From sequence record SRR20825006_1326: a stretch of 64,000 bases of DNA; one strand, given 5' to 3'. Below, one piece after another: positions 7,310 to 54,325 of the stretch (positions within the stretch are counted from its first letter, which is position 1; each line of letters starts with the position of its first letter). A program made the translations under genes and the position numbers. Under the pieces are notes generated by a model. The model saw only the letters and a list, made by a program, of their open reading frames with translations. It did not search any database and was not told where the DNA came from.

Positions 7310-7341
7310 AGCCTTATTCCATCCCTAAACTTGGTGGGTGA

Positions 7342-8358: not shown

Positions 8359-8362
8359 AGAG

Positions 8363-11237: not shown

Positions 11238-11294
11238 CTTATCTCAAATAAAACTCGCGGTTGCAGCTCAAGTGAAAATGGTCGTGGAATTGCA

Positions 11295-36298: not shown

Positions 36299-39200
36299 TG
36301 TGTCGTCCCGTCCAATTGATCTTGCAGGTAAAATTCTTCGATATATTCGGCAAGACTGGCGATGGTCGGCCGTTCAAATATCACCTTTACATCCACATGC
36401 TCTTCCAGCATTTCGCGCAAAATGGTGATCACCCGAATGGCCAACATGGAATGCCCGCCAATGGTGAAAAAGTTCGCATGGCGGCCAATATTTTCAAGCC
36501 CCAAGATTTCGGTCCAAATCTCCGCCAAAGTGGCTTCAACTTCACCTTGCGGCAGCTCGTCAGAAGGGGCCGGCACCATGCCAATCCCAAGCTCTGCTAG
36601 TGCGCGCCGATCAATCTTGCCATTGGGGGTAAGCGGAAATTGTTCAAGCTGAATAATCAAGGAGGGCACCATATAGTCAGGCAGCACCTGCGACAGCTCA
36701 CTGCTCAAAGCACTTGGCTCTCCATTGGAAACAAAGGCGATCAGCCGATTGTCACGCATTTGGCACACAGCGTTCTGCACTCCAAGTCCGTTCAACCGCG
36801 ATTCAATCTCGCCAAGTTCAACACGATAACCGCGAACCTTCACCTGGCTGTCAGTGCGACCCACAAAGGCCAGTGTGCCATCCTGCTGCTGCTGAACCAA
36901 ATCGCCCGTCTTATATAGCCGCTGCGCGGAACCTGAAATTTGAACAAAAGCCTTCTGCGTCAATTCATCCGCATGCAGATAGCCATAAGCAAGAGCGTCG
37001 CCGCCAATATAAAGTTCGCCCTTGTTTCCAGCAGCCACAGCACGCTGATTTTGATCCAGCACATAAAACGAGATATTTTGCAGCGGCGTGCCAATGGACA
37101 CGGTGCCATCAGTTTGCTTGCCGCCAAATTCATAAGCACTCGCCCACACCGTGGCCTCGGTCGGGCCATATACATTGGTCAGCTTCGCGTTTGGGAAAGT
37201 CGATTTTGCCGCGTGAAATAGTGCAGTTGAGCTCGCCTCGCCACCGCAAAGGACATGCCGGACACCAGCAAGTTGTCTATTCTGGTCCACCAGAAGCGAC
37301 AGCATTGAAGGCACCATCTGCACAAAGCTAACGCCTTCTGCCTCCACCAACTCAGCAATAGATACCGCATCAAGTTCTTGCCCCGGCGCGGTGAGAACGA
37401 CACGCGCACCAAGACTCAGCGGCGCAAGAATTTCCGTCACCGCGATATCGAAACTAAGTGAGGTTACCTGCAAAATGCGATCATCGCGCGTCATCTCAAT
37501 TTGCGTGGCGACTGCATCAAGATAATTGCACAGACTGCGATGTCCAATTTCCACGCCTTTAGGCACTCCAGTAGAGCCAGACGTATAAATGACATATGCT
37601 GCATCGGTGGCAATTTGCACAGGCGATTGCGCGCTTGATGCCGAATAAAACTGTTGATCCCGAAGTGAAAATTGATCAGCGGATAAGCCACTATTGATCT
37701 CCTCGGTAACGATCAAATGCGGACGCGCACTCGCCACAATCTGAGTCAATCGCGCAGCCGGATAACTCGGATCAAGCGGCAAATAGGCGGCTCCCAGCTT
37801 ATGAACAGCAAGGATCGCCTCAATCATGCGCGGTCCACGCGCGACATGAATTCCCACTAAACTATCGGAGCCAACCTCATGAGAGGCCAGTTTTTCCGCC
37901 AATTGGTCCGCTGACGCATTTAACTCTGCATAGCTAATGCTTTGGCCTTCAAAGCGAATGGCCGTTGCGTCGCCATCCATTTGCACCCAATGGGCAAACC
38001 GCTCGATAAATGAGGTCGCATTGATGTCGGCTTTGGGCCCAACGAGGGCGGGGTCCAACTTCACTAGCGGCAATAATTGACCAAGCGACGCTTCCGGTTC
38101 TGCCACCGCTTTTTCAAGAAAATCAATAAAACCGTCGGCTAACTTCTGAATTCGCTCTGCGTTGAAAATATCAGTCGCAAAATTGATATTGAAGCTGATC
38201 ACATCGCCGCGCCGAACGCCCACTGACAAATCAAATTTAGCCTCAGTCTCAACCGGATCAATCATCCGCATTTGAGCGCAACCCAAGCTAATGGCATCGC
38301 TCTCACTATTGTCCTGCACCATCATGATTTGGAAAATCGGGCTATGGGCAAAACTGCGTTCTGGCTGCAGGCGATCAACAAGCTTTTCAAATGGCAGAGT
38401 TTGGTGCGCCATGTCTTCTTGAAATTGAAAATGGGCGGTACGCGAAAAGTCAGTGAAAGAAGTGGAAAAATCAGGTTGCACCCGCAAAGCAACAGAATTG
38501 ACAAAATTGCCAATAATGCCCTCAAACGCGTCACGCTCACGGTTTGCTACAGCCGTACCGATCACAATGTCAGCCTGCCCTTGCACATGGCAGAGATAGG
38601 CCGCGAACGCGTTAAACAGGGCGGCAAATTCTGTCACACCAAGTTGCGCAGCAAGAGCGTCAAGCTTGCTCGAGACCTCCTCATTCAGTGCGGCGGAAAT
38701 CGTTTGCCCCTTATGTGAAGGCTGCGCGGGGCGCGGCGCATCCAATGGCAGTTGATGCAACGGCGGCGCGTCTTCCAAGCGATCTAACCAATAAGCAAGG
38801 TCCTGGCCGCCATCATAATGTTCATGCTGCCAAACCGCGACGTCCGCAAAATTCAAACTAGCGACGGCTTCTGGTTGGCGACCATTGAAAAACGCCTGAA
38901 GCTGGTCAATGAAAAGACCGACAGACGTGCCATCAAACGCAATATGGTGCACCGCAATAAACAAACGAGATTTATGATCACTCAAAACAGCCAGCGCCGC
39001 CCGGAAAATCTGCCCCGAAGACAAGTCGAATGGCGCGTTTAAAATCTGATCTTCCAAATCAGCCAATTGCGATGACATATCTTGGCTCTTGCGCAAATCT
39101 GAAACGCTTAGAACGCCAGCTTTAAAGGGCATTACTTGCTGATAGGCCCGATCAGCTTTTTGCAGATAGGCAGTTCGCAAAATCGGATTTTGTTCGACAA

Positions 39201-42200
39201 ACTGATCAAAGAAAACAGCCAACCTATCGACATCAATTTCGCCATCAATATCAAATGCCAAAGGTATGGTGTAGAACCGACCATGGGCATCAATCTGATC
39301 AATTGCCCACATGCGTTCCTGAGAAAAAGAGAGCGGCAGTGGTTGCGACAAATCTTGCCGTTCAATATTAGTCGACACCGCGCCAACATTCGTTTGCTTG
39401 GCATCCAATGCTGAGGCGATCGCCTCAATCGTCAGATTTTTGATCACATCGCGCAGTGCGAGCTGGCTACCAAAATGCTGATTGACATGATTGAGCATCT
39501 TAATGGCCAAAAGTGAATAACCGCCGAGGGCAAAAAAGCTGGCGCGCACGTCAACCACATCACGCTCAAGCAGCTTGCACCATAACGCGCACAAATCTTG
39601 CTCAGCCTGATTGCGCGGCGCGGTGCCTTGTTGCACCTCTCGCATAATATTTGCTGCGGGCAGGGCCTTCCGGTTAATTTTGCCACTGCTGGTCAGAGGC
39701 ATGTCATTCAGCACAATATAGTGCGCAGGCATAAAGCTCGGCGGCAAATGCTCAGCAAGAAAATTAGCCAAAACGCCACTTGCTTGCCCCGATTCTAGAG
39801 ACGTTTGAATATACGCCAGCAATTGCTTACTGCCATCAGGCAGGGAATTTGCAACAACGGCTGCTTGGCTCACGGCTTCATGCTGCATCAGCGCAGTTTC
39901 AACTTCTTCCAGTTCAATGCGCACACCGTTGATTTTAACCTGGAAGTCACGGCGACCAACAATTTTGATCGTTCCATCAGCACAACGCTTCGCCACATCA
40001 CCCGTGGCATAAGTCCGCACAGTCTGCCCATCGACGTTAAGCTGACCAAACCGTTCTGCCGTCAGCAGTTCATTGTTGAGATAATGCAGGCCCACCTGCG
40101 CGCCCGACAGCACCAGTTCGCCTTCGCAATGCGCAGGGGAAGGGTTGCCATATGCATCAAGAACATGGGCACCAGTGTTCGGCAGCGGCTGGCCAACATG
40201 CACTTCATCACCGTCGCTGAGCGGGACCGCCAAAACATAGCCAGTGCATTCACACGGGCCATAAATATTGATCAGATTTAAGTCTCGATTGGCGGCAAAC
40301 AGTTTAGATTTAAGCTGGTCAGAAAGGGCTTCACCGCCAGAAATGATGGTCTGTTGCGCCCTGGGGCGCCAGCCATCATCAAGCAGAAATTGCCAAGTGG
40401 TTGGTGTGGCGAACAAATAATCAACGGCCAGCCGCTCTTGATCTTGGTTCAACAGTTTTCCGTCACGAAACCGCGTTGGTTCGAACAGCGCAATGGATCC
40501 GCCAAAGGCCAGCGCAACATAAATCTCAAAAAGATGGGCATCAAAAGTGAGGGTGGACGCCACGCCGAAACATTTTCCGGAGGCAAAACCAAACCGTTCT
40601 TGGCTGGCAAAAATCAAATTGGTCAGTGAACTGGCGGGCAACGCTGCGCCCTTCGGTTTACCCGTTGATCCAGACGTAAATACAAACATCGCTGGCAGTT
40701 CACTGTGCCAACCATCGCCCGTTCGGTTTGGGTTTTTCGCTTCAATGCGTCCATCAGGCTCAACGCAAATAAGTTGTGCGAACTCGGCACATTGACGTGC
40801 GGTGCCAATCAAATGCGTGCATTCCGTATCCTGAATGACCTGCTCATTGCGTGATGACGGATTATTGCTATCCAGCACCACATAGGCGCCGCCGATTTTC
40901 TGCACGGCGATCAAAGTAATCAGATTGTCAGCCTCGTCGCCAACAAAAATTCCCAGCCGACTGCCGACCTGCGCACCATCCGCAATCAGTTGAGCCACCA
41001 ACCCATTCGCACGCGCGTTCAAATCGGCATAACTCAGCTGTTGAACCGCACCATCTTTGCTGAGCCAAGTGCAGGCCTTCGCCTCAGGTGTTTTCTCAAC
41101 CTGCATTTCAAACAGATCGGCAAAACCCAACTCAAGCGGATAGGGGGCCGTTACGCTGTTGAGTGCATCCCAATTTTCTTGAACTTCAGGCGCTACCAAA
41201 GCCACTTTGGCGAGCTTTTGATCAGGTTCGCTTGTCAAACGATCCAAGGCATAAGCATATGTTTGGGCAATAGCTTCAATGGTTTCCTGCTCGAAAAGCT
41301 TTTCCGCATAAAGCCAGTTTGCAACCAGGCCACCTTCAGACGTGCCAGTCAAATGCAATTCAATTTCAAATCCAAGATGATGTGCATCCAGCTCGATTTT
41401 TTCGCCTTTTTTCCGATCCAAGGTAGGACAGGCTTCGGCTTCCTCCGCGAGAGAAAAGATCAATTGGGTAAGGGGTGTAAAACTCGCTTCACCTGCAAAG
41501 CCAAGCTGTTCAATAATCTGCTCAAAATGCAAATCTTGATGGGCCTGCGCGGCCAGATTACTTTTGTGCACCCGGTTAACGAGCTCGCGAAAACTTAACT
41601 GATGATCTGCCTGCACCCGCAGCGGCACCATATTGGCGAAAAAGCCAATCAGATTATCAAGTTTTGCACCCTGTCGGCCCGCCACCGGCGTGCCGATCAC
41701 ACAATCTTCCGTCTGGCTATATCGCGCCACCACCACATAAAATGTGGCCAACATCACCGAATATAGGCTGCATTCGCACGCACGCGCCAAATCACGCAAT
41801 CCCTCCAAAGCGACGCGATCGACCGGCATAGATAGTAGCCGACCAGAAAAACTCGCCTGAGACGGACGTGCATGGTCAGGCTTGATGGTGTTGAGAATTG
41901 ACGCGCCATCCAGTTGCTCGCGCCAAAACATGCGGCTTTTTTCCGACCAGTCTTTATCGCCCTGCCACCGCGCAAAATCCCCATATTGAAAGGGAATATC
42001 CGGCAACTTCTGACCTTCGTCGGCGTTGTAGAGCGTCGCCAATTCTTTGTAAAAACAATCGAACGACCATCCATCAAACACCAAATGGTGAAAGGCAAAA
42101 AACAGATAGCTCGTATCTTGCTGCTGCAATAGCGCAGCGTAGCAAACCATGCCCTTGCTAATATCCAACGGCACAGCCATTTGCTTGGCGATCCAGCTGT

Positions 42201-42672
42201 CAAAGTCTACTTCTTCTTGAACATCAAAAGCGAATTGCACATCAGCAACGGGCGTCTGCGTTGCTTCGCCTGCATCATCAATCGAAAACTTTGATCGCAA
42301 GATCGTGTGTCGATCCAAGATCGCGTTGAGCGCCTGTTTCAGCCGCGTGGCGTCCAACTGCCCATTAAAGCGATAGGCGGCGCGCATCACATATGTATCT
42401 TGCAGATCAAACGCTGTTTCTTGATAAAAAACACGTCGCTGCGTTTGGGATAAAGGCGCGGCAGAAGTCGGGTCTCCAACCTGCGGGCCGTCATTTCTCT
42501 GTGCGGGCGCTCGTTCTTCAAAAAAAGCAATCAAGTCCGATTTGCGACCCATAATGGCTTGGCGCAAATCATCGCTTGGCGGCTGAGTGCGCGCGCGAAA
42601 CTTGAGCTTCCCAGCTTCCACATAAAGCTGAATGCCTTCTGCCTTGGCTTGCCGCAAAAGCTCAAGAACCAT
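36295..42672 (-). CDS. Bimodular NRPS: docking domain-C-A(aliphatic)-T-C-A(Gly?)-T
   Basis: TubC_N-like N-terminus; HHLVFDG and HHIAFDG; codes read as DAFFIGIGYK (Ile/Leu/Val-like) and DITQLGVVWK (Gly-like); T motifs GGYSL and GGHSM. Confidence 0.95.
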   Translation of the reverse strand: MVLELLRQAKAEGIQLYVEAGKLKFRARTQPPSDDLRQAIMGRKSDLIAFFEERAPAQRNDGPQVGDPTSAAPLSQTQRRVFYQETAFDLQDTYVMRAAYRFNGQLDATRLKQALNAILDRHTILRSKFSIDDAGEATQTPVADVQFAFDVQEEVDFDSWIAKQMAVPLDISKGMVCYAALLQQQDTSYLFFAFHHLVFDGWSFDCFYKELATLYNADEGQKLPDIPFQYGDFARWQGDKDWSEKSRMFWREQLDGASILNTIKPDHARPSQASFSGRLLSMPVDRVALEGLRDLARACECSLYSVMLATFYVVVARYSQTEDCVIGTPVAGRQGAKLDNLIGFFANMVPLRVQADHQLSFRELVNRVHKSNLAAQAHQDLHFEQIIEQLGFAGEASFTPLTQLIFSLAEEAEACPTLDRKKGEKIELDAHHLGFEIELHLTGTSEGGLVANWLYAEKLFEQETIEAIAQTYAYALDRLTSEPDQKLAKVALVAPEVQENWDALNSVTAPYPLELGFADLFEMQVEKTPEAKACTWLSKDGAVQQLSYADLNARANGLVAQLIADGAQVGSRLGIFVGDEADNLITLIAVQKIGGAYVVLDSNNPSSRNEQVIQDTECTHLIGTARQCAEFAQLICVEPDGRIEAKNPNRTGDGWHSELPAMFVFTSGSTGKPKGAALPASSLTNLIFASQERFGFASGKCFGVASTLTFDAHLFEIYVALAFGGSIALFEPTRFRDGKLLNQDQERLAVDYLFATPTTWQFLLDDGWRPRAQQTIISGGEALSDQLKSKLFAANRDLNLINIYGPCECTGYVLAVPLSDGDEVHVGQPLPNTGAHVLDAYGNPSPAHCEGELVLSGAQVGLHYLNNELLTAERFGQLNVDGQTVRTYATGDVAKRCADGTIKIVGRRDFQVKINGVRIELEEVETALMQHEAVSQAAVVANSLPDGSKQLLAYIQTSLESGQASGVLANFLAEHLPPSFMPAHYIVLNDMPLTSSGKINRKALPAANIMREVQQGTAPRNQAEQDLCALWCKLLERDVVDVRASFFALGGYSLLAIKMLNHVNQHFGSQLALRDVIKNLTIEAIASALDAKQTNVGAVSTNIERQDLSQPLPLSFSQERMWAIDQIDAHGRFYTIPLAFDIDGEIDVDRLAVFFDQFVEQNPILRTAYLQKADRAYQQVMPFKAGVLSVSDLRKSQDMSSQLADLEDQILNAPFDLSSGQIFRAALAVLSDHKSRLFIAVHHIAFDGTSVGLFIDQLQAFFNGRQPEAVASLNFADVAVWQHEHYDGGQDLAYWLDRLEDAPPLHQLPLDAPRPAQPSHKGQTISAALNEEVSSKLDALAAQLGVTEFAALFNAFAAYLCHVQGQADIVIGTAVANRERDAFEGIIGNFVNSVALRVQPDFSTSFTDFSRTAHFQFQEDMAHQTLPFEKLVDRLQPERSFAHSPIFQIMMVQDNSESDAISLGCAQMRMIDPVETEAKFDLSVGVRRGDVISFNINFATDIFNAERIQKLADGFIDFLEKAVAEPEASLGQLLPLVKLDPALVGPKADINATSFIERFAHWVQMDGDATAIRFEGQSISYAELNASADQLAEKLASHEVGSDSLVGIHVARGPRMIEAILAVHKLGAAYLPLDPSYPAARLTQIVASARPHLIVTEEINSGLSADQFSLRDQQFYSASSAQSPVQIATDAAYVIYTSGSTGVPKGVEIGHRSLCNYLDAVATQIEMTRDDRILQVTSLSFDIAVTEILAPLSLGARVVLTAPGQELDAVSIAELVEAEGVSFVQMVPSMLSLLVDQNRQLAGVRHVLCGGEASSTALFHAAKSTFPNAKLTNVYGPTEATVWASAYEFGGKQTDGTVSIGTPLQNISFYVLDQNQRAVAAGNKGELYIGGDALAYGYLHADELTQKAFVQISGSAQRLYKTGDLVQQQQDGTLAFVGRTDSQVKVRGYRVELGEIESRLNGLGVQNAVCQMRDNRLIAFVSNGEPSALSSELSQVLPDYMVPSLIIQLEQFPLTPNGKIDRRALAELGIGMVPAPSDELPQGEVEATLAEIWTEILGLENIGRHANFFTIGGHSMLAIRVITILREMLEEHVDVKVIFERPTIASLAEYIEEFYLQDQLDGTTQ

Positions 42673-45600
42673 CAGAACTCACCATCAAATTGATAGTCAG
42701 CTTCTGGTTCGGCGAGGCTGCCCTTAATCAGATCAATATATTCCGCCAAATCCTGCACAGTTGCATGATCGAAAAAGTCATTTACTTTAAGTTCGACATT
42801 AAACTGATCGCGAATGCGTCCAATCAACCGAATGGCCAAAAGCGAATGTCCGCCAACAGTGAAGAAATTATCAGCAATGCTGAGTTTTTCGACATTGAGC
42901 GCTGCACACCAAAGCGCATGCAAATCTGTTTCAGTTTGCGTTTCTGGCGCAACATATTGTGCGGTCTGGCTAATTGTTTCTGGCAGCGCTTTAACATCCA
43001 CCTTGCCCTGTGGTGTCAGTGGCAGGCGATCCAACACCATGATCGTATTGGGCACCATATATTTCGGCAACACCTTGGCAAGTTGCGCTTTCAAATGACG
43101 TGTTAGCTTGTCTTCATCGACATTGCTTGTCACCGTCACATAAGCGCAAAGTGCGCTGTTTTTCACCGCAACTGCAGCCTGTGCCACATCAGAATGGCTT
43201 TGCAAACTGCTCACAATTTCTGCAGGCGCAATCCGGTAGCCGCGCAGTTGAATTTCGTCATCAATACGACCCAAAAATTCCAACTGCCCATCATGACGCC
43301 AACGTACTTTGTCGCCAGTCCGATAAAATCTTTCATTCGGCCAATCCGCAAGTTGCACAAAGGATTTGGCGGTTTCTTCCGGCAAATTGAGGTAACCTTT
43401 GGCAATGCCAGTACCACCGATCACCAACTCTCCCGGCGCGCCAACTGGGCAAAGCCGTTCGCCATCCATGACTAAGGCGCTTGTGTAAGCCGCTGGTCGA
43501 CCAATCGGCGGTGCCTCAGGCTCATTGCGCGGCACTTCATAAAACGTGGCATCAATGGTGGTTTCTGTCGGGCCATAAAGATTGAGCAGTTTCGCACTAA
43601 ATCCGTCAGGCAAACGAACCGCTGAAAGGCGGTCACCACCCGCGGCCAAAACTTTCAAACTATCCGGCCAAGTTACATCGCTGTTGAATGCTTCTTCCAG
43701 CAGGCCAGTCGGCAAACAGGCCACGCTGACCTGTTGCTCCCGCAGCAACTGCATCAAACCGCCCAAATCATCACGTTCCTGATCCGCAATCAGCGAAACG
43801 CTGCCGCCTGCGAGCAGCAGAGGCCAGATTTCGCCGTGATATGCATCGAAACCCGTGTGAGAAAGGCTAACACCGCGCGATTGCGCATCAAGCTCCATAA
43901 TCGACATCAGATGAGCGCATTCGTCCGACAAGCTATTCGCGTATATCTCCACACCCTTAGGCTGTCCGGTAGAGCCTGACGTGTAATTCACATAAGCCAA
44001 ATGCCCATCTTGCAACGGACGCTCGCAAAAGCTTGTGTCTGAAGCGCTTGCCTCATTGATCTCCACACACTCGAAAGATTGTGCTTGCGGCGGCAACGCC
44101 TCGTCCCAAAGCACAATGCTTGGTGCACTGTCGCGCAACATATGCTCAATGCGGGCATCGGGCAGGGAAGGATCAAGGCAAACGATGGTGCCCTGAAGTT
44201 TCTGCACCGCAACCATCGCCACAATTTGCGCCATGCCCCGCGCCGCATAAATCGCCACGCGATCATTCGGCTGCACCTTGTGTTCGAGTGTTGCCGCGAG
44301 AGCATCAGAACGCTCATCCAATTGGCGATAGCTCATCACCTCATGGCCAGCCCGCAAAGCAATATGGTCGCCCTGAGTTTTAAGCTGCGCGTTGAGCGCT
44401 TCGACAAAGCTCTTGCCATCAAGTTGCGCACGAACATGCGCCGGTACGTCATAGCCACGTCCCCAATCAAACAACAGAACATCTCTTTGTTCTGTCGTCA
44501 GGCTCGGCACGTCAGCAATGGACATATCCCGCGTTTCACACAGGGCCAAAAACACCTGTTTAAAGCTCTCAACAAAATGGCGAATTTCATCAGCATGATA
44601 AATATCACTGCGATATTCCCAGAGAAACGAGACCATATCATTGTCAGTGAAATGTCTGTCGCGGTTCACCACCAAACAGTCCAAATCAAACTTGGTGGTT
44701 TTGGAAATCACCGTTTCATCTTTGCGCCAGCGCAGCCCGTCAATGTCATCCACATCAATCGGCGCATCATGGAAGCCAAGCAAAACATTGAATAAGGGAT
44801 TCTGCCCGCCAAACCGATCTGGGTTGAGCACCTCGACCACAGCACCAAAAGGCATTTCCTGGTTGGCATAGGCGGCATCAATTGTCTTTTGCGTGTGCTG
44901 AATAAATGAAAGTGCGTCTTGATCAGGATCGATTTTGGCACGAAGCACCAGCGTGTTCACCAACATGCCGAGGATTGATTGGCTGTTCAGCCAATTTCGG
45001 TTGGCAAATGGCGCACCGAAAACAATGTCTTGCTCGCCAGAATATTGCCAAAGCATCAAGTTGAGCACCGCTGAGGTGAAGCCAAAAGGCGTTACACCAA
45101 TTTCGCGGCACATGTCCTCACATCTGGCCCACTCAGCACGGGTGAAATCGATACGCTCATAACCGCCTTCAAAGCCCAATCGCGTAGATTTCTTACCAAA
45201 TATCGGCACCGCACGTGGCGCATCTGCAAGTTGCTCAACCCAATAGTTTTTTTGCCGCTCCGCATCTGGTGAGGCGAGCCATTCGGTTTGTGTGAGCAAA
45301 AAGTCCGAATATTGCGGCACTTCTGCTGGTGCAAATTCGTAATCGGGCGAAGCAAAATGATGATACCAGCCCATTAATTCTGCCGTAAATTCTGAGCCGC
45401 CCCATCCATCATGCACAATATGATGTTCCTGATGCAGCAGAACATAGTGCTGGTCAGAGAATTTGATCAATGCAAACCGTGCCAGTGGCAGTTTGCTCAA
45501 ATCAAAAATGCCCGGCAGCACTTCTGCAAATGTCTGCTTGATAAAATCCTCGCGCGCATCTGCCGCGACATGCGTGGCATCAATGCTTGGATATTCAACC

Positions 45601-47552
45601 TGGTGATGCGGCAAAATCTGCTGAACGGGTTCACCCTGATCTTCGAAAAAGACAGTACGATAAATCTCATGCCGATCAAAAATCTTCTGCGCCGCGTTCA
45701 GCATCGCTTCAGGATTAAACGCGCCGTCAAAATGATGCACCGCTTCGGCAAGATAGGCTTTGCTGGTTGGGTCTTGGTTGAACATATACCAAGCCGCATT
45801 TTGCTGCTGCGACAGCGGCAACACATCTGTGTTACGTTGGTTCAGCTCAATCTGCACAATATCGGTCGCATCGCGCTCCAGCAGATCAATCAACGCGGCA
45901 AGTGTCGGTGCCTTCCGAAAGTCGCCAACTGCAACTTTGCGGCCAGTCATCTTGGATAGTTTGGCCAAAAGCCGCATCGCACCAACTGAATCGCCACCAA
46001 GCTGGAAAAAATCTTGATCCAACTCGACATGCTCTCGTCCAACTTCATGCAAAAAAGCCGCACGCGCCACACTTTCCAAATCATCGACAGAATACGCGAT
46101 TTCAGCATCAGCCGCCGCGAGGGCCGCCAAAGCCTTGCGATCAACTTTGTGATTCAATGTGTAAGGCAAGCGATTCAAAAATTTGAAATATTTAGGGAAA
46201 TGAGAGTCCGGAAGTCGCTTTGACAGTACATCTTTCAACTGCGGCAATAATCCACTCTCGGCAGAACCAGCCACCACGAACGCCACAAGATGACGGTCAC
46301 TGCTATTGTCTCCAACAGCAATCACCGCCGCTTCGCGAACTTCTTTATGCTCCAACAACACAGTTTCAATGGCACTGGTCTCAACGCGCGCACCGCGAAT
46401 TTTCACTTGGAAGTCTGTCCGACCAACAAACTTGAAGCTGCCGTCTGAGACTGCTTGAACCTCATCACCCGTAAAATACCGAACGAGGCCATCGTGGCCT
46501 TTAACAAAGCGCTCAGCGGTTTGCTCAGGCGCGCCCATATAGCCTTTCGCAAGGCCAAAGCCACTGATCACCAATTCAAGGCTTTCCGGGTCTTGAGATA
46601 ATTGGACATGCTTAAGTGGTGCGCCCAAACTGATTGGCATGTTCGGTTCAATTTTGCACAGACTGGTGCAAACTGAAGCTTCTGTTGGTCCATAACCATT
46701 GAAAGTTGGGCAAATCGCCGCCCAATCCCACAGCAGCTGATCATCAAGCTTGTCGCCAACGCAAATTAACGCGTCCAGCGCATAATCCTGCCGTTGTGGC
46801 AAATAGGGCGCCAAGGCAGCGGGCAATGTCAAATGCGTAATTTTTTCCGCAACGAGAAACGATGCCAATTCCTCTGGTGCCAACCGAGCAGCTTCCGGCA
46901 CAATCGCCAATTCGGCACCATGCAAATAGGCCTGCAAAAATTCCAGCACCGCCGAATCGAAAGAAAGGCCCGTGAATTGCGCAATGATTGAATTGGCATC
47001 CATCCCGGTGCGCGCACCGAAATCTTTTGCCGCCATCAACATGGCATCCAGCGTCAACATCACGCCCTTGGGTTTGCCTGTGGTGCCAGACGTAAACAGC
47101 ACGAATCCCACTTCGCCAGCCTCCAGCGGGGCAGGTGTCGTCTCTTTTTCCACTTTGACTGCCTCTAGACTTTCAAGCGTCTGGAATTGTGTGTCCGCCC
47201 AGCCTTCAGGCTGATCGGTAATCACCAAACCACATTGCGCAGTTTCAACCAGATTTCGTTTATATTCTTCACCATGTGCTGGATCGATTGGCACCACAAC
47301 ACAGCCCGCTTTAAGGCAGGCCAACATGGCAACAAATACATTCGGCCCGCGGTGTAGCGAAATGCCGATGGTGGGGCGTCCAAATTCTTGTGAGATGGGA
47401 AGGTTTAGGCTGCCAATTGCCGCTGCCAGCGCGGCAGCTCTTTGTTCTAAGCTGCCATAATCCATTTTCTGCCCTTCATAAGAAAGGGCGGTCCGGTTCA
47501 AATCCAAATGGTTGGCCGGGGTGGTGCGAAATGGATTTACAAAATCTGGCAT
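42672..47552 (-). CDS. Initiating NRPS A-T-C(urea)-A-T
   Basis: Begins directly with an A domain (code read as DSLTIVGVCK, aromatic-like). T GGDSV. C motif EHHIVHDG. Second A code DAGCAGLIDK. T GGHSL. ATG 47552 preferred over TTG 47567. Confidence 0.95.
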   Translation of the reverse strand: MPDFVNPFRTTPANHLDLNRTALSYEGQKMDYGSLEQRAAALAAAIGSLNLPISQEFGRPTIGISLHRGPNVFVAMLACLKAGCVVVPIDPAHGEEYKRNLVETAQCGLVITDQPEGWADTQFQTLESLEAVKVEKETTPAPLEAGEVGFVLFTSGTTGKPKGVMLTLDAMLMAAKDFGARTGMDANSIIAQFTGLSFDSAVLEFLQAYLHGAELAIVPEAARLAPEELASFLVAEKITHLTLPAALAPYLPQRQDYALDALICVGDKLDDQLLWDWAAICPTFNGYGPTEASVCTSLCKIEPNMPISLGAPLKHVQLSQDPESLELVISGFGLAKGYMGAPEQTAERFVKGHDGLVRYFTGDEVQAVSDGSFKFVGRTDFQVKIRGARVETSAIETVLLEHKEVREAAVIAVGDNSSDRHLVAFVVAGSAESGLLPQLKDVLSKRLPDSHFPKYFKFLNRLPYTLNHKVDRKALAALAAADAEIAYSVDDLESVARAAFLHEVGREHVELDQDFFQLGGDSVGAMRLLAKLSKMTGRKVAVGDFRKAPTLAALIDLLERDATDIVQIELNQRNTDVLPLSQQQNAAWYMFNQDPTSKAYLAEAVHHFDGAFNPEAMLNAAQKIFDRHEIYRTVFFEDQGEPVQQILPHHQVEYPSIDATHVAADAREDFIKQTFAEVLPGIFDLSKLPLARFALIKFSDQHYVLLHQEHHIVHDGWGGSEFTAELMGWYHHFASPDYEFAPAEVPQYSDFLLTQTEWLASPDAERQKNYWVEQLADAPRAVPIFGKKSTRLGFEGGYERIDFTRAEWARCEDMCREIGVTPFGFTSAVLNLMLWQYSGEQDIVFGAPFANRNWLNSQSILGMLVNTLVLRAKIDPDQDALSFIQHTQKTIDAAYANQEMPFGAVVEVLNPDRFGGQNPLFNVLLGFHDAPIDVDDIDGLRWRKDETVISKTTKFDLDCLVVNRDRHFTDNDMVSFLWEYRSDIYHADEIRHFVESFKQVFLALCETRDMSIADVPSLTTEQRDVLLFDWGRGYDVPAHVRAQLDGKSFVEALNAQLKTQGDHIALRAGHEVMSYRQLDERSDALAATLEHKVQPNDRVAIYAARGMAQIVAMVAVQKLQGTIVCLDPSLPDARIEHMLRDSAPSIVLWDEALPPQAQSFECVEINEASASDTSFCERPLQDGHLAYVNYTSGSTGQPKGVEIYANSLSDECAHLMSIMELDAQSRGVSLSHTGFDAYHGEIWPLLLAGGSVSLIADQERDDLGGLMQLLREQQVSVACLPTGLLEEAFNSDVTWPDSLKVLAAGGDRLSAVRLPDGFSAKLLNLYGPTETTIDATFYEVPRNEPEAPPIGRPAAYTSALVMDGERLCPVGAPGELVIGGTGIAKGYLNLPEETAKSFVQLADWPNERFYRTGDKVRWRHDGQLEFLGRIDDEIQLRGYRIAPAEIVSSLQSHSDVAQAAVAVKNSALCAYVTVTSNVDEDKLTRHLKAQLAKVLPKYMVPNTIMVLDRLPLTPQGKVDVKALPETISQTAQYVAPETQTETDLHALWCAALNVEKLSIADNFFTVGGHSLLAIRLIGRIRDQFNVELKVNDFFDHATVQDLAEYIDLIKGSLAEPEADYQFDGEF

Positions 47553-48009
47553 CTTTAAAGATCTCAAATGCTAAGAATAAAGCGCCAATTGCTTGGCGGT
47601 CCGGTCCGGGCAATCAAATAAGCGAATAATGTCGCTTTTATGCTGCTGCTGATGCCCACGGATAAAATGATCGAACCTCGCACCGTACGCCTAAAACTTT
47701 AGTCGCGAAAGCTAAAGCGAGGGAGATGAAGTGCGAGATCCGATCGAATAGGGTGCAATGCGAAAAGGCTATAAACGCACCAACTTGGTTGCGCCGAAGT
47801 GCATGGACACACAAATGATCATCGGCGTTTTTAAGTTTGTTCTTAAAATGTTTTTTTCGCCCATAATGCTAGTCCCTCCCAGAGCATAATTGGCAACCAA
47901 GTCATATGTTTTGGTCTCACATATGGCACCTGATATTATCGTTTTTGGTCACCGCCATTTTATGGTTCGGCAACTCGAATAAGCTAATTCCGATTTTTGC
48001 ATCAATCCA

Positions 48010-48044
48010 ATGCTGAATCTGCATACCCTATGCATCTCTTGCAA
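48010..48044. promoter_or_regulatory. Two tandem LysR-type T-N11-A dyad boxes in the divergent NRPS/MFS promoter region
   Basis: ATGC-TGAATCT-GCAT at 48010-48024 and ATGC-ATCTCTT-GCAA at 48030-48044, offset by 20 bp. Confidence 0.5.
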
Positions 48045-48179
48045 TGGATATCCGATCCATATGACGTTACGCTGTCAAACTTGTGGCGTAAAAGAACGTA
48101 TCAGTACGCAGGGTCAAAAGCCCACATCGCCAATAAAGATAAGAACGATCCAATAATGGACGTTTGGGGGGAGAAGAGC

Positions 48180-49424
48180 GTGGCCAATGAAAAGAAAGCA
48201 TGGGGCTTTGTCGCAACTTTGCGCAGCTTGCCGCCTCACGCACAATTCTTCATTGTCGCGATCACTTTGACCCGATTGACCAGTTTTATGGTCTTTCCGT
48301 TTTTAGCTGTCATTTTGAGTGAGCGCTTGGGCGCAACCGTTTTTCAAATCGGCTTTCTGTTTACCTTGGGCGCATTTGTCGGTCTGGCGGCATCGCCTAT
48401 TGCTGGGTTCATTGCCGATGGGATGCGGAAAAAGAATCTGATGCATGGCGCCAACCTGCTGACCATCATTTGCTTTCTGATTTTAGCGTTCTTGCCCAAT
48501 CTACAGGCTTATTTTATCGCGATCACCTTGTTCTCGGCTGCTGGAGGGGTGCTAGAGCCGCTTTTGCGCTCATCTTTGGGCGAATTGGCAGAAAATGAAG
48601 AACAGCGCCCAGCGCTCTTTCATGTGCGATATTACATTGTGAACATTGCGGGCGCGGTCGGGCCATTCATTGGCCTCTGGTTTATTCAAAGCGGAAACAA
48701 CTCAATTTTCCTCATCGCAGCGGCAAGCTATGTGCTCTTGGGCTATGCCATTCAGTTCAAATTGCCTGAAATTGAGGACGCGCCGACCGCCAAAGAACGT
48801 GGCTCAAGCCTGTCCGTCTTAAAAGAAGCATTCAAACATCGTCTATTTGTCGCCTTGTTCATCTCCAACTTGCTGTTGGTCTTTATCTATGCACAAACTG
48901 ACGAGCCGTTGACTTTGCACATGATCAATCTGGGCGTGCCCGACCTGGCCGCGATCATCGCCATGCTCACTGTCACCAACACAGTCGTCGTGTTGGTTAT
49001 CCATGGCCTGTTTATGAAGCAGATTATGGAAATGGGAGAGCGGACAGCCTTTCTGATCGCCATTGCTTGTTTGGGCCTGTCGCTATTGATGATTGCCATC
49101 AACCAACAGCAATTTGTCTGGCTTTGGGTTTTGGCCATCGGGGTTTCAACACTCGGCGAAATCATTGCTTTGCCCATGTTTCTCACCATTGTAGATCGTG
49201 TCGCGCCAAAAGATCAGCGAAACTCCTTTTTCGGCATCTACATGCTGTCCAATCTCGGGGGCGCCGTTGCGCCATTGTTGGCCGCACAATTGATCATCAC
49301 ATTGGGCGGCCCAGTTTTGTTTTATGCCGCAACAGCCTTGTGCCTGCCATTGGCATGGATCGGCTATATCGCTTTGAAAGAAAAACAACCAATTGCGGAG
49401 GAGGGGGAGATTGAATCCGTATGA
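48180..49424 (+). CDS. MFS transporter (MdtH-like), probable product exporter
   Basis: About 12 TM segments; motif GFIADGMRKK; GGGGGAG RBS before GTG 48180; 3' end overlaps the next gene. Confidence 0.88.
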   Translation: MANEKKAWGFVATLRSLPPHAQFFIVAITLTRLTSFMVFPFLAVILSERLGATVFQIGFLFTLGAFVGLAASPIAGFIADGMRKKNLMHGANLLTIICFLILAFLPNLQAYFIAITLFSAAGGVLEPLLRSSLGELAENEEQRPALFHVRYYIVNIAGAVGPFIGLWFIQSGNNSIFLIAAASYVLLGYAIQFKLPEIEDAPTAKERGSSLSVLKEAFKHRLFVALFISNLLLVFIYAQTDEPLTLHMINLGVPDLAAIIAMLTVTNTVVVLVIHGLFMKQIMEMGERTAFLIAIACLGLSLLMIAINQQQFVWLWVLAIGVSTLGEIIALPMFLTIVDRVAPKDQRNSFFGIYMLSNLGGAVAPLLAAQLIITLGGPVLFYAATALCLPLAWIGYIALKEKQPIAEEGEIESV

Positions 49425-50433
49425 AAAATTGGATGATCGCGCATTTTGGAAACTCGGCGTTGCCGAACCCAAACTGGGCGAACTAACCCAAGTCTGGCTT
49501 CCCAAATTTAATATAGAAAAGCAACATGCCGTTGCCACCGCCGGCTCATGCTTTGCGCAAAATATTGGGCGTGCCCTGCGTAGCCGTGGCATGAATTGGT
49601 TGGTCACCGAGAAACCACCGCAAGCTTTGCCACGCTCACTACACACAGCGCATAATTATGGACTTTTCACCTTTCGCACTGGCAACATCTACACGCCCGC
49701 TTTATTGGCGCAATGGGTGCGCTGGGCATTAGATAGATCCAGCATGGACCAAGAAGTGTGGGAAACAGACGGTCGATTTTTCGACCCGTTCCGCCCATCA
49801 GTTCGGCCTAATGGTTTTGACAGCGTCGAAGATGTACTGGCCTCGCGCCACGTCACGGCCGATGCAGTCAAAACGGCAATCGAACAAGCGGATATTTTTC
49901 TGTTCACCCCGGGCCTTACCGAAGCTTGGGTCAACACAAAGTCAAAATCCATTTATCCAGCTTGTCCGGGCACAGTGCAGGGCACCTTCAACCCTGATGA
50001 GCATCAGTGCATCAATTTCGGTTTTGAGTCGGGCAAAAAAGCGTTGGCGAGTGCGTTCGACGCCATGCAAAACCACAATCCAAACATCAAAATGCTGCTT
50101 ACCGTTTCGCCTGTGCCGATCACAGCAACGGTAACTGGCCATCATGCGCTCACCGCCAGCACCTACACGAAATCGGTGCTGCGTGCCCTTGCTGGCGAAT
50201 TTGCCAATGCCAATGAGCATGTGGACTATTTCCCGTCCTATGATTTGGTGTCGCCAGCCATGTTGGACCAGTCCTATTTCAACGAAAACAAGCGAACGGT
50301 TTCCCCCAGTGGCGTCGATTATGTGATGAAGCATTTCTTTGAGGGCTTGGGGCAAGAGAAACAGTCCAGCCCGGTTCCAATGGGCGATATTGTCTGTGAA
50401 GATGAGATTTTAGAATATTATGGCAAAGCATGA
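49411..50433 (+). CDS. GSCFA-domain protein (SGNH-like fold)
   Basis: Literal TAGSCFAQ motif, plus GNIYTP, TPGLTEAW, LTVSPVP, YFPSYD. GGAG RBS before TTG 49411. Confidence 0.9.
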   Translation: MNPYEKLDDRAFWKLGVAEPKLGELTQVWLPKFNIEKQHAVATAGSCFAQNIGRALRSRGMNWLVTEKPPQALPRSLHTAHNYGLFTFRTGNIYTPALLAQWVRWALDRSSMDQEVWETDGRFFDPFRPSVRPNGFDSVEDVLASRHVTADAVKTAIEQADIFLFTPGLTEAWVNTKSKSIYPACPGTVQGTFNPDEHQCINFGFESGKKALASAFDAMQNHNPNIKMLLTVSPVPITATVTGHHALTASTYTKSVLRALAGEFANANEHVDYFPSYDLVSPAMLDQSYFNENKRTVSPSGVDYVMKHFFEGLGQEKQSSPVPMGDIVCEDEILEYYGKA

Positions 50434-51082
50434 ATTTGCATTGATTGGTGACTCGCACGCAGGCACCATTGGCCGCGCTGCGCGGGAACGGGGCATCGAA
50501 TTTGGCGGCGGCCCCATCGCCTCCGGCAAAGAGTTTTATTCAGATTTTTTCGAGGTAGAGCAGGGCAAACTCAGCTTTGTTGTGGAAGATACAATCCGGG
50601 TATATGGCGAACTGTGCCAGCTTTGGGGTGTAGATTGCATTGAAGATTTAGAGATTCCAATTGTCTCCACCATTGGCTCTGGATTTCATTTCCCAGCGGC
50701 ACGCGCCGTTTGGGCAAACTTCCGCGACGAAAATCTAGGCTTTACTCAGGACTTTATCGCTGGCCCCATGTGTCAATCGATCTTTCAACGCATGCAAGCA
50801 CCCATGTTGGCCTTTCATCAGCACCTAGTCGAGCAGGGCAAAACCGTGTTTTTCGCACTACCACCACAACGCGTTCCAGACAGTGCATGGGGTGAACTGT
50901 TCCGTGCACTGCAAAATCGTGCCGTTAGCGAACTCACAAAAATTGGCTGTTCAGTCATCGATGTGCGCAATGACACATCGGATAAGGAAGGCAATCTTCT
51001 GGCTGAATATTGCCAGGACAATGATCCAATTCATGGAAACACCGCCCTGGGCAAAAAGATGTTAGAGGCCGCTGGCCTCTAA
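50420..51082 (+). CDS. SGNH/GDSL hydrolase-like protein
   Basis: N-terminal IGDSH (block I Ser) and C-terminal DPIHGN (DxxH); overlaps the GSCFA gene. Confidence 0.72.
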   Translation: MAKHEFALIGDSHAGTIGRAARERGIEFGGGPIASGKEFYSDFFEVEQGKLSFVVEDTIRVYGELCQLWGVDCIEDLEIPIVSTIGSGFHFPAARAVWANFRDENLGFTQDFIAGPMCQSIFQRMQAPMLAFHQHLVEQGKTVFFALPPQRVPDSAWGELFRALQNRAVSELTKIGCSVIDVRNDTSDKEGNLLAEYCQDNDPIHGNTALGKKMLEAAGL

Positions 51083-51954
51083 ATTTTCTCGTAAGGCTTT
51101 TCGCCCACAAGAGTTACCCGCTCACCAAAGCGGGAATAGGGGTAATAATCCCAAATGGCCCGGTGCTGCGTGCAACGATTATCCCAAAACACCACGGTGC
51201 CAGTTTCCCACTGAACGCGACAGCTCAACAGCACCTCATGCTCAATCTGTCGGAACAGCATTTCCAAAATGGCACGGCTTTCAAATTCAGTGAGCTGCAA
51301 AATGCGCGTCGTAAAACCGGGATTAATATAGAGCATTTTTGCACCCGTTTCCGGATGTTTCACCACAATTGGGTGCTCGATCTTTGGCAAATTAGGTGGC
51401 GCTTCATACCCAGCCCATGGCAATGCCGCATCATGGATCGCAGTCATACCTTCAAGCATTTCTTTCATGCCCGGCGAAAGCATCTCATAGGCCAAATGCA
51501 TATTGGCAAAAACCGTATCACCACCGCATCCAATCTCCGGAATTTGATGAATGTGCAGCATCTGCGCCCATGCGGGCTGTTCCGATGCAGTGCCATCTGT
51601 GTGCCAAACTTCACCCGCCACAAACTGCGAAGCGTCCGAGGCTTGGATCAACACAATCTCGGGATCATCGCCATCAATATCTTCAAGTGCCATTTTCCGC
51701 AGCGTACCAAAATTGCGAGCAAACTCTTTTTGCTGCTCCGTATCAATTTTCTGATCACGGAAAACCAACACATGATATTCATTCAGCGCCTGCCGCAACT
51801 CAGCAACCTGCTCTTTGCTGATTGGTTTTGACATGTCGATGCCACTCACTTCGCCACCGATAACCGGATTGAAGCGCTTTACATTGATGGTCTTAAAGTC
51901 AGTCTTTTTGGCCGTGGCGATCTTTTTGATCGCTTCTAAATTGGTGTGGTCCAT
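51079..51954 (-). CDS. TauD/TfdA-family Fe(II)/2-oxoglutarate dioxygenase
   Basis: HxD motif WHTDG, GGDTVFAN, HPIVVKHPETG, WDNRCTQH. Confidence 0.95.
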   Translation of the reverse strand: MDHTNLEAIKKIATAKKTDFKTINVKRFNPVIGGEVSGIDMSKPISKEQVAELRQALNEYHVLVFRDQKIDTEQQKEFARNFGTLRKMALEDIDGDDPEIVLIQASDASQFVAGEVWHTDGTASEQPAWAQMLHIHQIPEIGCGGDTVFANMHLAYEMLSPGMKEMLEGMTAIHDAALPWAGYEAPPNLPKIEHPIVVKHPETGAKMLYINPGFTTRILQLTEFESRAILEMLFRQIEHEVLLSCRVQWETGTVVFWDNRCTQHRAIWDYYPYSRFGERVTLVGEKPYEKI

Positions 51955-51993
51955 TTCTCTCTCCCAAATGACAATTCTTCTTGTCCGTTTGTT

Positions 51994-52650
51994 TTAACTG
52001 ATGGCCTGCTGCAGTTTTTCCTGCAATTCTGTTGCCAATTCTGCTTGGCTTTTTGGGCCCAAGGCATTCTGATAGCTGCGCATCAAGCCACGTAAAAATG
52101 CTTCAGGGCAGCTATTCAAAAATTCGTCGACGCTTCTTGTCTCAAAACTTTTTGCAATGCCTTCGCCCATCGCCGCACTCACCGTGCGGTTGAAAAAGGC
52201 GAGCATCGCATTGGTGTCAGTTTCGGCATAATATTCCGCATAATTCTCTGCACTGCCGAAATGCTCATTGATCATGGCTTGATTTTTGCCAGCAAATTCC
52301 ATGGCACTTTCATGCGCCGCATCATAAGTCGCATCATAGGCAAATGATTGGCCTGTTTGCTGCTCAAACATCTCACGCAATGCTGCAGCCCAAAGTGTGC
52401 CAACATAAGTGCCGTCTGTTTTCCATTGCTGCGCCAAAGTTTCAACGCGCTGAAGGGGCGACAAATCCTCAGCCCGCAATTGCGAAACAGTTTTCGCCAC
52501 GGGCAACAGCCCATCACAAACCCACTTAATCACCGCATCAAAATCATCATTTTCAACATTAGCAGTCACAAGCGGAAGAGCATTTTCCTCTACCGAATTG
52601 GCACTTAAAATGTTTGAGAGGGTGAGGGCCCAATGGCGATCATCATTCAT
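51994..52650 (-). CDS. Hypothetical protein (acidic, probably helical), embedded in the BGC
   Basis: Open ~218-aa frame filling the gap between the PPTase and TauD genes on the same strand; GAGG before ATG 52650 (alternative start 52665). No motif recognised. Confidence 0.7.
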   Translation of the reverse strand: MNDDRHWALTLSNILSANSVEENALPLVTANVENDDFDAVIKWVCDGLLPVAKTVSQLRAEDLSPLQRVETLAQQWKTDGTYVGTLWAAALREMFEQQTGQSFAYDATYDAAHESAMEFAGKNQAMINEHFGSAENYAEYYAETDTNAMLAFFNRTVSAAMGEGIAKSFETRSVDEFLNSCPEAFLRGLMRSYQNALGPKSQAELATELQEKLQQAIS

Positions 52651-52728
52651 TATTTGGAGCCTCATTTGACGCAGTATGGCTTTTCAAAAATCAGTTGATC
52701 AAACGCATCAAATTTTGACCCGCAAAAT

Positions 52729-53433
52729 CTATGATAAACCTAGCAATTCAGCGCTATTGAGGCAAGTCAGAACGCAGCCATTTACAGCTGAATTTACCGC
52801 TAAACAGCCAATTATTTCGGCCTTTGGATCATCGAAATCCAACAAGCGAAAAGAACCCGAAAAATCAACAACCGGATTATGCGTATTTAGCCGTACATCA
52901 ATAGTGTTGAGCTCATCAATCAACCCCGTTGCCGTCACCTTCAACAGCGCTTCTTTGCGCACCCACATGCGCAAAAACGCACAGCCTTGTTCGGCTGTAT
53001 CTTTTTGGGCAATCCAAGCTCTCTCATTGGCGTGGCACACCATATCGATCAAACTGTCAGCTTCTTTCTTGCGCGACATTGTTTCAATATCCACGCCCAC
53101 AGCATGGTGCCGATGAAAGGCAACCGCAACCGCTTGTTGTGTGTGGGAAATATTGAAATGCATGCTCGGGAAAGTTGGTTTGCCATTTTCAGTCAGATCA
53201 AAGTCAATTGTAGGCAAGTCCAAGAAATGCCTGACCAAACTACGTCCCAAAATGTGCGCTTGGCGCTGTGCAGGGACTAAAACACGATCAAATTTCGCCG
53301 CTTCGTTCGGCGTAATTTGAGGCGTTAACGCCTTGACTTCATCGAGTGCCGCATAAAACACCGCTGCTTGATCGGCATCTAGCGCCTTATGAATGCGCGA
53401 CCGACATGCATTAAGTTGCTCATGCAGTGACAT
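52729..53433 (-). CDS. 4'-phosphopantetheinyl transferase (Sfp-type)
   Basis: GKP, FNISHT, VGVDIE, WVRKEALLK. ATG 53433 overlaps the end of the TEII gene. Confidence 0.93.
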   Translation of the reverse strand: MSLHEQLNACRSRIHKALDADQAAVFYAALDEVKALTPQITPNEAAKFDRVLVPAQRQAHILGRSLVRHFLDLPTIDFDLTENGKPTFPSMHFNISHTQQAVAVAFHRHHAVGVDIETMSRKKEADSLIDMVCHANERAWIAQKDTAEQGCAFLRMWVRKEALLKVTATGLIDELNTIDVRLNTHNPVVDFSGSFRLLDFDDPKAEIIGCLAVNSAVNGCVLTCLNSAELLGLS

Positions 53434-54139: not shown

Positions 54140-54325
54140 AAAAACAAGCTCCAAATCAATGCGCAAATCACCATTGGCATGCATATAAGCAGACCTGTTT
54201 CAGATTCACAAATGATTGGGAGAAAAGACGAAATATCCGGTGCAAGCACAAAAGCTCACACAAAAACACACCAAATTACCCGAAGCAATATGCGTGAAGA
54301 AAACTAGATAAGTCTTTGAAGGGAA

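Follow-up and report, generated by a model that had tools for sequence, protein, structure and literature searches.

The closest described relatives of the gene cluster analysed here are the ppp clusters of Pseudovibrio, the mbp cluster of Microbulbifer and the chm cluster of Chitinimonas koreensis, whose products (pseudovibriamides, pseudobulbiferamides and chitinimides) are reported to modulate motility and to antagonise blasticidin S (PMC10616845; bioRxiv 10.1101/2020.12.15.422899; PMC8302735). A ureido bond between residues 1 and 2 has been proven for the mbp and ppp products (PMC10616845; bioRxiv 10.1101/2020.12.15.422899). Their head synthetase, PppA or MbpA, is described as providing an aromatic residue, a ureido-linked Thr that is turned into dehydrobutyrine (Dhb) by a dehydrating condensation (C) domain, and then Gly or Ala (bioRxiv 10.1101/2020.12.15.422899; PMC10616845). 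Here, we analyse a gene for a nonribosomal peptide synthetase (NRPS), named winA, in a 64,000-nucleotide stretch of sequence record SRR20825006_1326 (the window, by which we mean this whole stretch), and in particular the C domain of its product (44475-45833, minus strand). Judged from sequence comparisons, this is very probably a ureido-forming (Curea) domain in the initiating NRPS of a ppp/mbp-type cluster; its motif and domain order, its placement in the Curea clade and the homology of the cluster are directly established.

In 2024, EHHXXHDG, in place of xHHxxxDG, was put forward as the signature motif of C domains that generate ureido bonds, and among MIBiG entries it is not reported from any C domain with another function (PMC11212132). 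In SnaA, the threopeptin synthetase of Stackebrandtia nassauensis, the exchanges E744A and H749A brought ureido-dipeptide formation down to the detection limit, while H746A, or a Ser-to-Ala change in either thiolation (T) domain, abolished it; both carriers are loaded and required, and residue 1 keeps an unactivated carboxylate after coupling (PMC11212132). For syringolin A, the ureido carbonyl was traced to bicarbonate/CO2 by 13C labelling (PMC2773804). An initial annotation of the window had read EHHIVHDG at 45405-45428 and had taken EHHxxHDG for the signature of urea-forming C domains. The latter claim agrees with the published signature and with the loss of activity in the SnaA E/H-to-Ala mutants (PMC11212132), and the former is borne out by translation: the stretch gives EHHIVHDG in the context LLHQEHHIVHDGWGG, residues 714-721 of the open reading frame (ORF) 42672-47567. 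The gene lies on the minus strand, which had been left unstated, and the plus strand shows the reverse complement of the coding stretch. The active-site residues E714, H715, H716, H719, D720 and G721 are invariant across a 75-sequence alignment of Curea domains (alignment A1). The window holds a single match to a degenerate DNA pattern for EHHxxHDGW, and none of 100 shuffles had any; a chance origin of this pattern in the window is excluded.

The winA gene (42672..47567, minus strand) opens a five-gene operon of NRPS and polyketide synthase (PKS) type. In the translated ORF, Pfam detects a single Condensation domain (aa 580-1031, E 5.7e-69) along with two AMP-binding and two PP-binding domains, and since the two AMP-binding/PP-binding units flank the Condensation domain, winA has the order A-T-C-A-T (A, adenylation), or A1-T1-Curea-A2-T2 in the reading given here. 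A custom C-domain hidden Markov model (HMM) matches aa 579-1024 with 425 bits, and Pfam and HMM together set the limits of the domain at 44475..45833 (aa 579-1031), in agreement with the 44500-45830 given earlier for a C domain between the first two A-T units. It is the sole C domain of winA and thus stands as the first C domain, after the loading A-T didomain and before the first extension A-T. The other parts, all on the minus strand, are A1 (46032..47552, from the A-domain HMM envelope), the T1 phosphopantetheine site GGDSV with Ser527 (45984..45998, from a motif search, the Pfam PP-binding match being in two stretches), A2 (42978..44390, from Pfam) and the T2 site GGHSL (42840..42854, from a motif search); both carrier domains keep their serine (GGDS and GGHS). 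The ORF measures 1631 aa from a TTG at 47567 and 1626 aa from an ATG five codons later, at 47552; the ATG is the likely start, because P0002 and P0003, the closest homologues, have the latter length. Among the 25 best NCBIfam families shown for winA, the generic adenylation model TIGR01733 alone passed the cut-off, and no named synthetase family did. The statement that ureido-forming domains sit in A-T-C-A-T starters fits winA, by Pfam and by both serines, but not SylC, the syringolin A synthetase of Pseudomonas syringae, which is a single C-A-T module with one A domain for both residues (PMC2773804), whereas winA has two A-T units and is not of this single-module type. SnaA, compared by description only, is like winA in having EHHxxHDG and an A-T-C-A-T order with two T domains, and unlike it in its PEARL-dependent cluster type and in carrying Arg on both carriers (PMC11212132). 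The first C domain of MbpA/PppA (Microbulbifer sp. MKSA007 plasmid CP128431.1; Pseudovibrio spp.) resembles that of winA in reading EHH(L/I)VHDGW and in following a loading A-T unit.

The Glu and the second-half His of the signature are strictly coupled. Among 240 xHHxxxDG motifs from the query and 120 listed homologues, both residues are present in 37, a single one in none and neither in 203; among 155 motifs in fetched genome loci the corresponding numbers are 79, 0 and 76, and these loci, being picked by motif, are a control for the coupling and not for frequency. The full motif is found in all 34 listed homologues at 43-96% identity, plus two at 31%. A DNA-pattern scan over 185,579 species genomes gave at least 120 loci, 80 of them with flanks, which is a sample and not a census; the window's own genus is absent among the genome-scan matches listed. 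All but about three of the 122 pattern matches listed are in typical C-domain context, usually some 690-860 residues into the ORF, i.e., behind an A-T unit. The exceptions L033, L078 (Kocuria rhizophila) and L086 (a Treponema metagenome-assembled genome, MAG) look like chance matches, having short ORFs or no C-domain context. In the fetched loci, 72 of the 79 motif-bearing domains are the first C domain of their own ORF. The non-first ones (L004, L006, L047, L049, L069, L070 and L072), mostly from Acidobacteriota-type MAGs, are preceded by 1-3 C domains and often continue as DGWT(Q/E)G. Two separate EHHxxHDG genes within about 7 kb were seen in Nostoc foliaceum (L025, 3288-3314 and 10001-10027) and in a Blastocatellia MAG (L052, 5447-5473 and 12464-12490).

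For the phylogenetic analysis, the eight C-type domains encoded by the five synthetase genes of the window were combined with the C domains found in the fetched loci, those of the Microbulbifer mbp cluster and selected homologues. In a FastTree phylogeny of 205 C domains, rooted on two heterocyclisation domains, 96 of the 98 motif-bearing domains fall together in a group that includes no other domain (support 0.96), and this group is unchanged when the eight motif columns are removed (support 0.942). A quick IQ-TREE search under LG+C20 with 84 rows placed all 54 motif-bearing rows on one side of a branch (SH-aLRT 90), and a 48-row core with support 99 unites the winA domain with MbpA C1, the Pseudovibrio domain L013, domains of Microcystis, Nostoc and Stigonema, and the SylC-like Pseudomonas domain L062, which carries EHHLIHDG at residue 172 of a 1333-aa ORF. 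The winA domain falls into a 16-row marine Proteobacteria subfamily (support 100), the sister of which (support 96) consists of domains from Pseudoalteromonas luteoviolacea, a Shewanella and a Pseudomonadota MAG; MbpA C1 is not its nearest branch within the Curea group. Forcing the 16-row subfamily together with 30 ordinary C domains costs 72 log-likelihood units and is rejected by the approximately unbiased (AU) test (p-AU 0.0024). By this placement the winA domain belongs with the C domains of ureidopeptide pathways, apart from ordinary C domains. The C-domain phylogeny that the initial annotation had proposed as a check thus came out in its favour, the domain grouping with EHHxxHDG domains and not with ordinary LCL domains.

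A comparison of 74 Curea domains outside the subfamily with 86 ordinary C domains yielded ten discriminating alignment columns, which are derived here and are not a published criterion. The winA domain matches seven of them, at E714, H719, M868, F932, H933, D934 and W983. The residues F932-H933-D934 (44766..44774, minus strand) make up a second discriminating patch, each present in 85-88% of the 74 other Curea domains and in 6-15% of the 86 ordinary ones. An AlphaFold2 model of the domain, built with alignment A1, reached a pLDDT of 92.4 and a pTM of 0.92 and superposes on solved C domains with TMq 0.80-0.87 (0.85 to 6p1j_A), and we are confident that the modelled domain has a canonical and complete C-domain fold. 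Searches of the PDB by sequence (41 hits) and by fold returned amide-forming, starter, heterocyclisation or other C domains, none of them named ureido-forming, and a literature search from 2022 on found no structural paper on ureido C domains. The entry 8z0q, a 'special condensation domain', was considered as a ureido reference and dropped, as it is HtmB2-CT; a literature search on this entry gave no paper.

The reaction, substrates and product are predicted from these comparisons. A1 would load a residue X1 on T1 and A2 a residue X2 on T2, and the C domain would then join both alpha-amino groups via a carbonyl from bicarbonate/CO2, as the work on SylC and SnaA leads one to expect. In such a reaction, H716 would serve as the general base, while E714 and H719 would shape the active site. 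X1 would leave T1 with a free carboxylate and X1-CO-X2 would stay on T2, after which winB, winC and winD would extend the chain normally, and the winD thioesterase (TE) would release the product with water, or onto the hydroxyl of a Val-Pro-acetate unit made by winE.

Several points weigh against the assignment of the winA domain as ureido-forming. The published claim that EHHXXHDG is necessary and sufficient rests on MIBiG examples only (PMC11212132), in the fetched loci 7 of the 79 domains with the motif are preceded by other C domains, and L004 and L064, the other two of the 98 motif-bearing domains, fall outside the FastTree group. The whole motif group has an SH-aLRT of only 90, from a quickly searched tree in which several branches are long, the group used in the AU test was named after the tree was seen, and the reference domains other than MbpA are homologues from species-representative genomes and not from the studied strains. 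The winA domain has low identity to any characterised Curea domain, with 29.4% to MbpA C1; for 72 of the 74 remaining members of alignment A1, the value is 22-33%. It differs at three of the ten discriminating columns, with F698 for W, S955 for N and N968 for P. With a simple and crude pattern search, the window showed no MbtH-like motif, and SnaA needed such a partner in vitro (PMC11212132).

Curea and LCL domains are closely related (PMC11212132), the fold of the winA model is indistinguishable from those of amide-forming C domains, and with the C-domain HMM the ordinary C domain of winD scores 414 bits against the 425 of the winA domain. One could therefore take the winA domain for an ordinary amide-forming (LCL-type) domain, in which the extra Glu and His are incidental and a normal peptide bond links residues 1 and 2. 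We nevertheless hold this to be most unlikely, given that Glu and His are never single or accidental in the 203 + 76 ordinary motifs, that the domain groups with motif-bearing domains even with the motif masked, that its placement with ordinary C domains is rejected by the AU test, and that M868, F-H-D 932-934 and W983 are common to it and other Curea domains. Membership of the Curea clade could also go with another outcome, for instance if the domain is bypassed or inactive and X2 becomes the first residue of the chain, or if it gives a hydantoin or an N-carboxy/carbamoyl cap rather than a simple linear ureido dipeptide. The long stem of the window's subfamily (0.99 substitutions per column), the three differing columns, the existence of hydantoin-type anabaenopeptin relatives (PMC10381486) and the motif-bearing domains in non-starter positions all speak for such an outcome, which we judge improbable: no catalytic or motif residue is altered, the serines of both T domains are in place and the two A domains are intact, and the described ppp, mbp and chm relatives give plain ureido linkages. 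In addition, the architecture is kept in the 34 listed homologues, at 43-96% identity and all with the motif, and this conservation argues for selection on function. That the cluster is a decaying or silent remnant, and its Curea domain without a product in the host, would accord with a head unlike the characterised ppp/mbp heads, but is scarcely credible when the five megasynthase ORFs are uninterrupted with overlapping stop/start junctions, and when the cluster has a 4'-phosphopantetheinyl transferase (PPTase), a type II thioesterase, transporters and the full set of conserved accessory genes.

The gene context, too, speaks for a ureido-forming winA domain, the tail and accessory genes being homologous to those of mbp. 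All four further megasynthase genes lie downstream of winA on the minus strand. In winB (36295..42672), a TubC_N docking domain is followed by C-A-T-C-A-T, which form modules 3 and 4. The next gene, winC (26078..36298), encodes C-A-T-C-A-T-Cy-A-T-Ox (Cy, heterocyclisation; Ox, a nitroreductase-type oxidase, which is present) with codes for Arg, Pro and Cys, the last predicted to become a thiazole, and is the MbpB orthologue (42.6% identity over the full length by BLASTP). The MbpC orthologue winD (22071..26081; 43.3%) consists of docking-C-A-T-TE with a Gln code, and the MbpD/PppD orthologue winE (12926..22078; 40.5% to MbpD) is an NRPS-PKS hybrid A-T-C-A-T-KS-KR-T-TE (KS, ketosynthase; KR, ketoreductase) without an acyltransferase (AT) domain, with Val and Pro codes. 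By contrast, winA and winB are about 30% identical to MbpA, no better than to any other NRPS in the cluster. Upstream of winA lie, divergently on the plus strand, a major facilitator superfamily (MFS) transporter gene of PppG/MbpG type (47997..49424; 41.5% identity to MbpG), a PppH-like gene for a GSCFA-family protein (49393..50433; 46.7% to the mbp GSCFA protein) and a PppI/J-like gene for a conserved 220-aa protein (50420..51082; 34.7% to a 237-aa mbp hypothetical protein). They are followed, on the minus strand, by genes for a TauD-family Fe/2-oxoglutarate dioxygenase of PppK/MbpK type (51079..51954; 62.9% to MbpK), a conserved 223-aa protein (51994..52665; 26.8% to a 210-aa mbp hypothetical protein), a PppE-like PPTase (52729..53529; 35.2% to the mbp PPTase) and a PppF-like type II thioesterase (53420..54184; 34.6% to an mbp alpha/beta hydrolase). 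In Pseudovibrio, PppK is a proline hydroxylase (PMC11796379).

The set described for the ppp family comprises pppB, pppC, pppD, the transporter gene pppG, pppHIJ for three uncharacterised proteins and the dioxygenase gene pppK, plus pppE and pppF in Pseudovibrio (bioRxiv 10.1101/2020.12.15.422899). The window holds the conserved set, with the MbpB/C/D orthologues, MFS, GSCFA and TauD proteins and two hypothetical proteins, and lacks the trimodular PppA/MbpA head: the MbpA head is one gene with three modules, whereas that of the window is two genes with four. Because of this head, of an A2 that is not Thr-type and of an ordinary C domain after module 2, the cluster is, on gene content, a chromosomal ppp/mbp-type (detoxin/rimosamide-like) variant and not the pseudovibriamide or pseudobulbiferamide cluster proper. 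Its flanks carry pgi, glmU, glmS, recG and mfd, the GlmS protein shares 94% identity with its Maritalea mediterranea counterpart, and GC values are 0.49-0.54, which together mark the host as a Maritalea-like member of Devosiaceae (an alphaproteobacterium) and the cluster as chromosomal, whereas the ppp and mbp clusters are plasmid-borne. A megablast search of the winA gene against the PLSDB plasmids gave no match, so that the cluster cannot be a near-duplicate of the ppp/mbp clusters that reside on plasmids. With the C domain as query, tblastn returned 903 plasmid records, all below 60% identity. In the literature surveyed, ppp-type clusters are described from Pseudovibrio, Pseudomonas, Microbulbifer and Chitinimonas only, though others may be in print, and a limited literature search found no paper on NRPS clusters of Maritalea.

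Some further features of these loci were observed in passing. Directly downstream of winE, at 6401-12851 on the minus strand, are genes for an Opp/Dpp-type peptide ABC importer (SBP_bac_5, two permeases and two ATPases) and a LysR regulator, neither of which is found beside mbpD in the annotated mbp region. The first C domain of winC reads AHHTVADR at 35783-35806 (minus strand), with Arg for the Gly of HHxxxDG, where its MbpB and Pseudovibrio counterparts read LHHFISDG and LHHIISDG. The mbp cluster contains an unannotated 54-aa ORF between mbpA and mbpB (L001, 26493-26657).

To predict the product, we extracted ten-residue A-domain codes by alignment, with positions placed from motif anchors, and compared them only with codes from loci of known product. 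The extraction is consistent, as the Arg, Pro, Cys and Gln codes of the window and of mbp are near-identical, and Microbulbifer and Pseudovibrio codes are the same or near-identical. The A1 code DSLTIVGVCK is nearest to the Tyr/Phe codes of PppA-like/MbpA A1 domains and shares five of ten residues with A1 of the PppA homologue in Pseudovibrio, where the product begins with Tyr; no substrate is assignable to it. The A2 code of the Curea module, DAGCAGLIDK, has no match among the codes from loci of known product and is not Thr-type, unlike A2 of MbpA and of L013; the A2 pocket is lined by small residues and has Asp at position 331, as in the Arg module of the cluster. In winB, the A3 code DAFFIGIGYK resembles the Val-type code of MbpD and winE, again with no assignable substrate, and the A4 code DITQLGVVWK is like that of the Gly/Ala module of MbpA. 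The tail has the same Arg, Pro, Cys and Gln codes as mbp: A5 (DVADLGAVDK) is like the Arg module of MbpB, A6 (DVQFIAHVVK) is Pro-type, A7 (DLYNMSLIWK) is identical to the Cys module of MbpB and A8 of winD (DAWQFGVVDK) to the Gln module of MbpC, and the two winE codes are Val-type (DAFFLGVTFK) and Pro-type (DVQFVAHVVK). The C domain after module 2 is ordinary (288 bits, FHHLVFDG), whereas MbpA has in its place a divergent, dehydrating domain that scores 90.7 bits and has no HH motif, so no Dhb is expected. Our best guess from the codes is X1-CO-X2-X3-Gly-Arg-Pro-thiazole-Gln with a free X1 carboxylate, which may be esterified to the winE Val-Pro-acetate unit by the winD TE or released as the acid; an esterification route of this kind has been proposed for pseudovibriamide B and is reported as demonstrated for the chitinimides (PMC12911931, PMC12828459). 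The window's cluster has eight modules before the first TE, and the detoxin-like chm cluster, compared by description only, likewise gives an eight-residue skeleton; its chitinimides are ureido octapeptides with Arg, a Pro-thiazole and an ester to a Val/Ile-Pro-acetate-type unit, but differ from the predicted product in containing Met, Phe, Ser and two Dhb (PMC8302735).

The cluster is a mosaic with respect to mbp: the head (36295-47567) is about 30% identical to MbpA, while 12926-36298 and 47997-54184 are 26.8-62.9% identical to their mbp counterparts. The tail C domains of the window pair with those of mbp in the tree, whereas both winB C domains pair with those beside a Vibrio penaeicida homologue (L044), the one subfamily locus seen with flanks, which has no ppp-type accessory genes within 10 kb and a downstream NRPS that differs from the window in its A-domain codes. 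Among the fetched loci, ppp-type accessory genes occur beside a Curea gene only in Pseudovibrio and Microbulbifer. The subfamily of the winA domain includes, by source names, Sulfitobacter, Litoreibacter, Rhodobacteraceae MAGs, Marinomonas, Vibrio nigripulchritudo, V. penaeicida and Kiloniella laminariae, with A-T-Curea-A-T proteins like winA in which the C domain is 43-96% identical, the full-length members have 1531-1744 aa and all read EHH[IL][IV]HDG. Their A2 code is near-invariant, DA[AGVM][CVF][AL]G[LMF][IV][DH]K (P0002-P0095 and L044), and the A1 codes vary, with DAEHVGS-type codes in Marinomonas-type members. The cluster thus looks like one with an exchanged ureido head. Whether it arose by a natural head swap, with a ppp-type tail joined to the ureido starter of a separate, uncharacterised marine lineage, is in our view evenly balanced; the product would in that case be an undescribed ureido octapeptide or depsipeptide, and the X1-CO-X2 cap a novel building block that dozens of marine bacteria have in common. 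In another of the fetched loci (L077, Tateyamaria omphalii), the loading A domain of the Curea ORF has the code DLYNMSMIWK, one residue off the Cys-module code of the window and MbpB, which suggests a cysteine-capped ureido starter there.

The prediction of a chain reversed via a urea bridge and capped by a free carboxylate was made from the DNA letters alone. The motif and the reaction were already described between 2009 and 2024, and no open question is answered by finding them here. The initial annotation had further called the motif common in protease inhibitors, a poor guide in this case because the gene neighbourhood is of the pseudovibriamide/pseudobulbiferamide/chitinimide type; in this context, one of motility-modulating and anti-antibiotic peptides, a peptide with a signalling or anti-antibiotic role is more to be expected than a protease inhibitor. 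Chitinimide A is reported as a weak cathepsin B inhibitor (PMC8302735). The analysis points out a widespread marine A-T-Curea-A-T subfamily without a known product and extends the pseudovibriamide/chitinimide cluster family to a chromosomal locus in a Maritalea-like member of Devosiaceae. In essence, the ureido head of the ppp-type family appears to be exchangeable for one of another lineage, and a new congener would be of ecological interest because members of this family are motility signals and blasticidin S antidotes.

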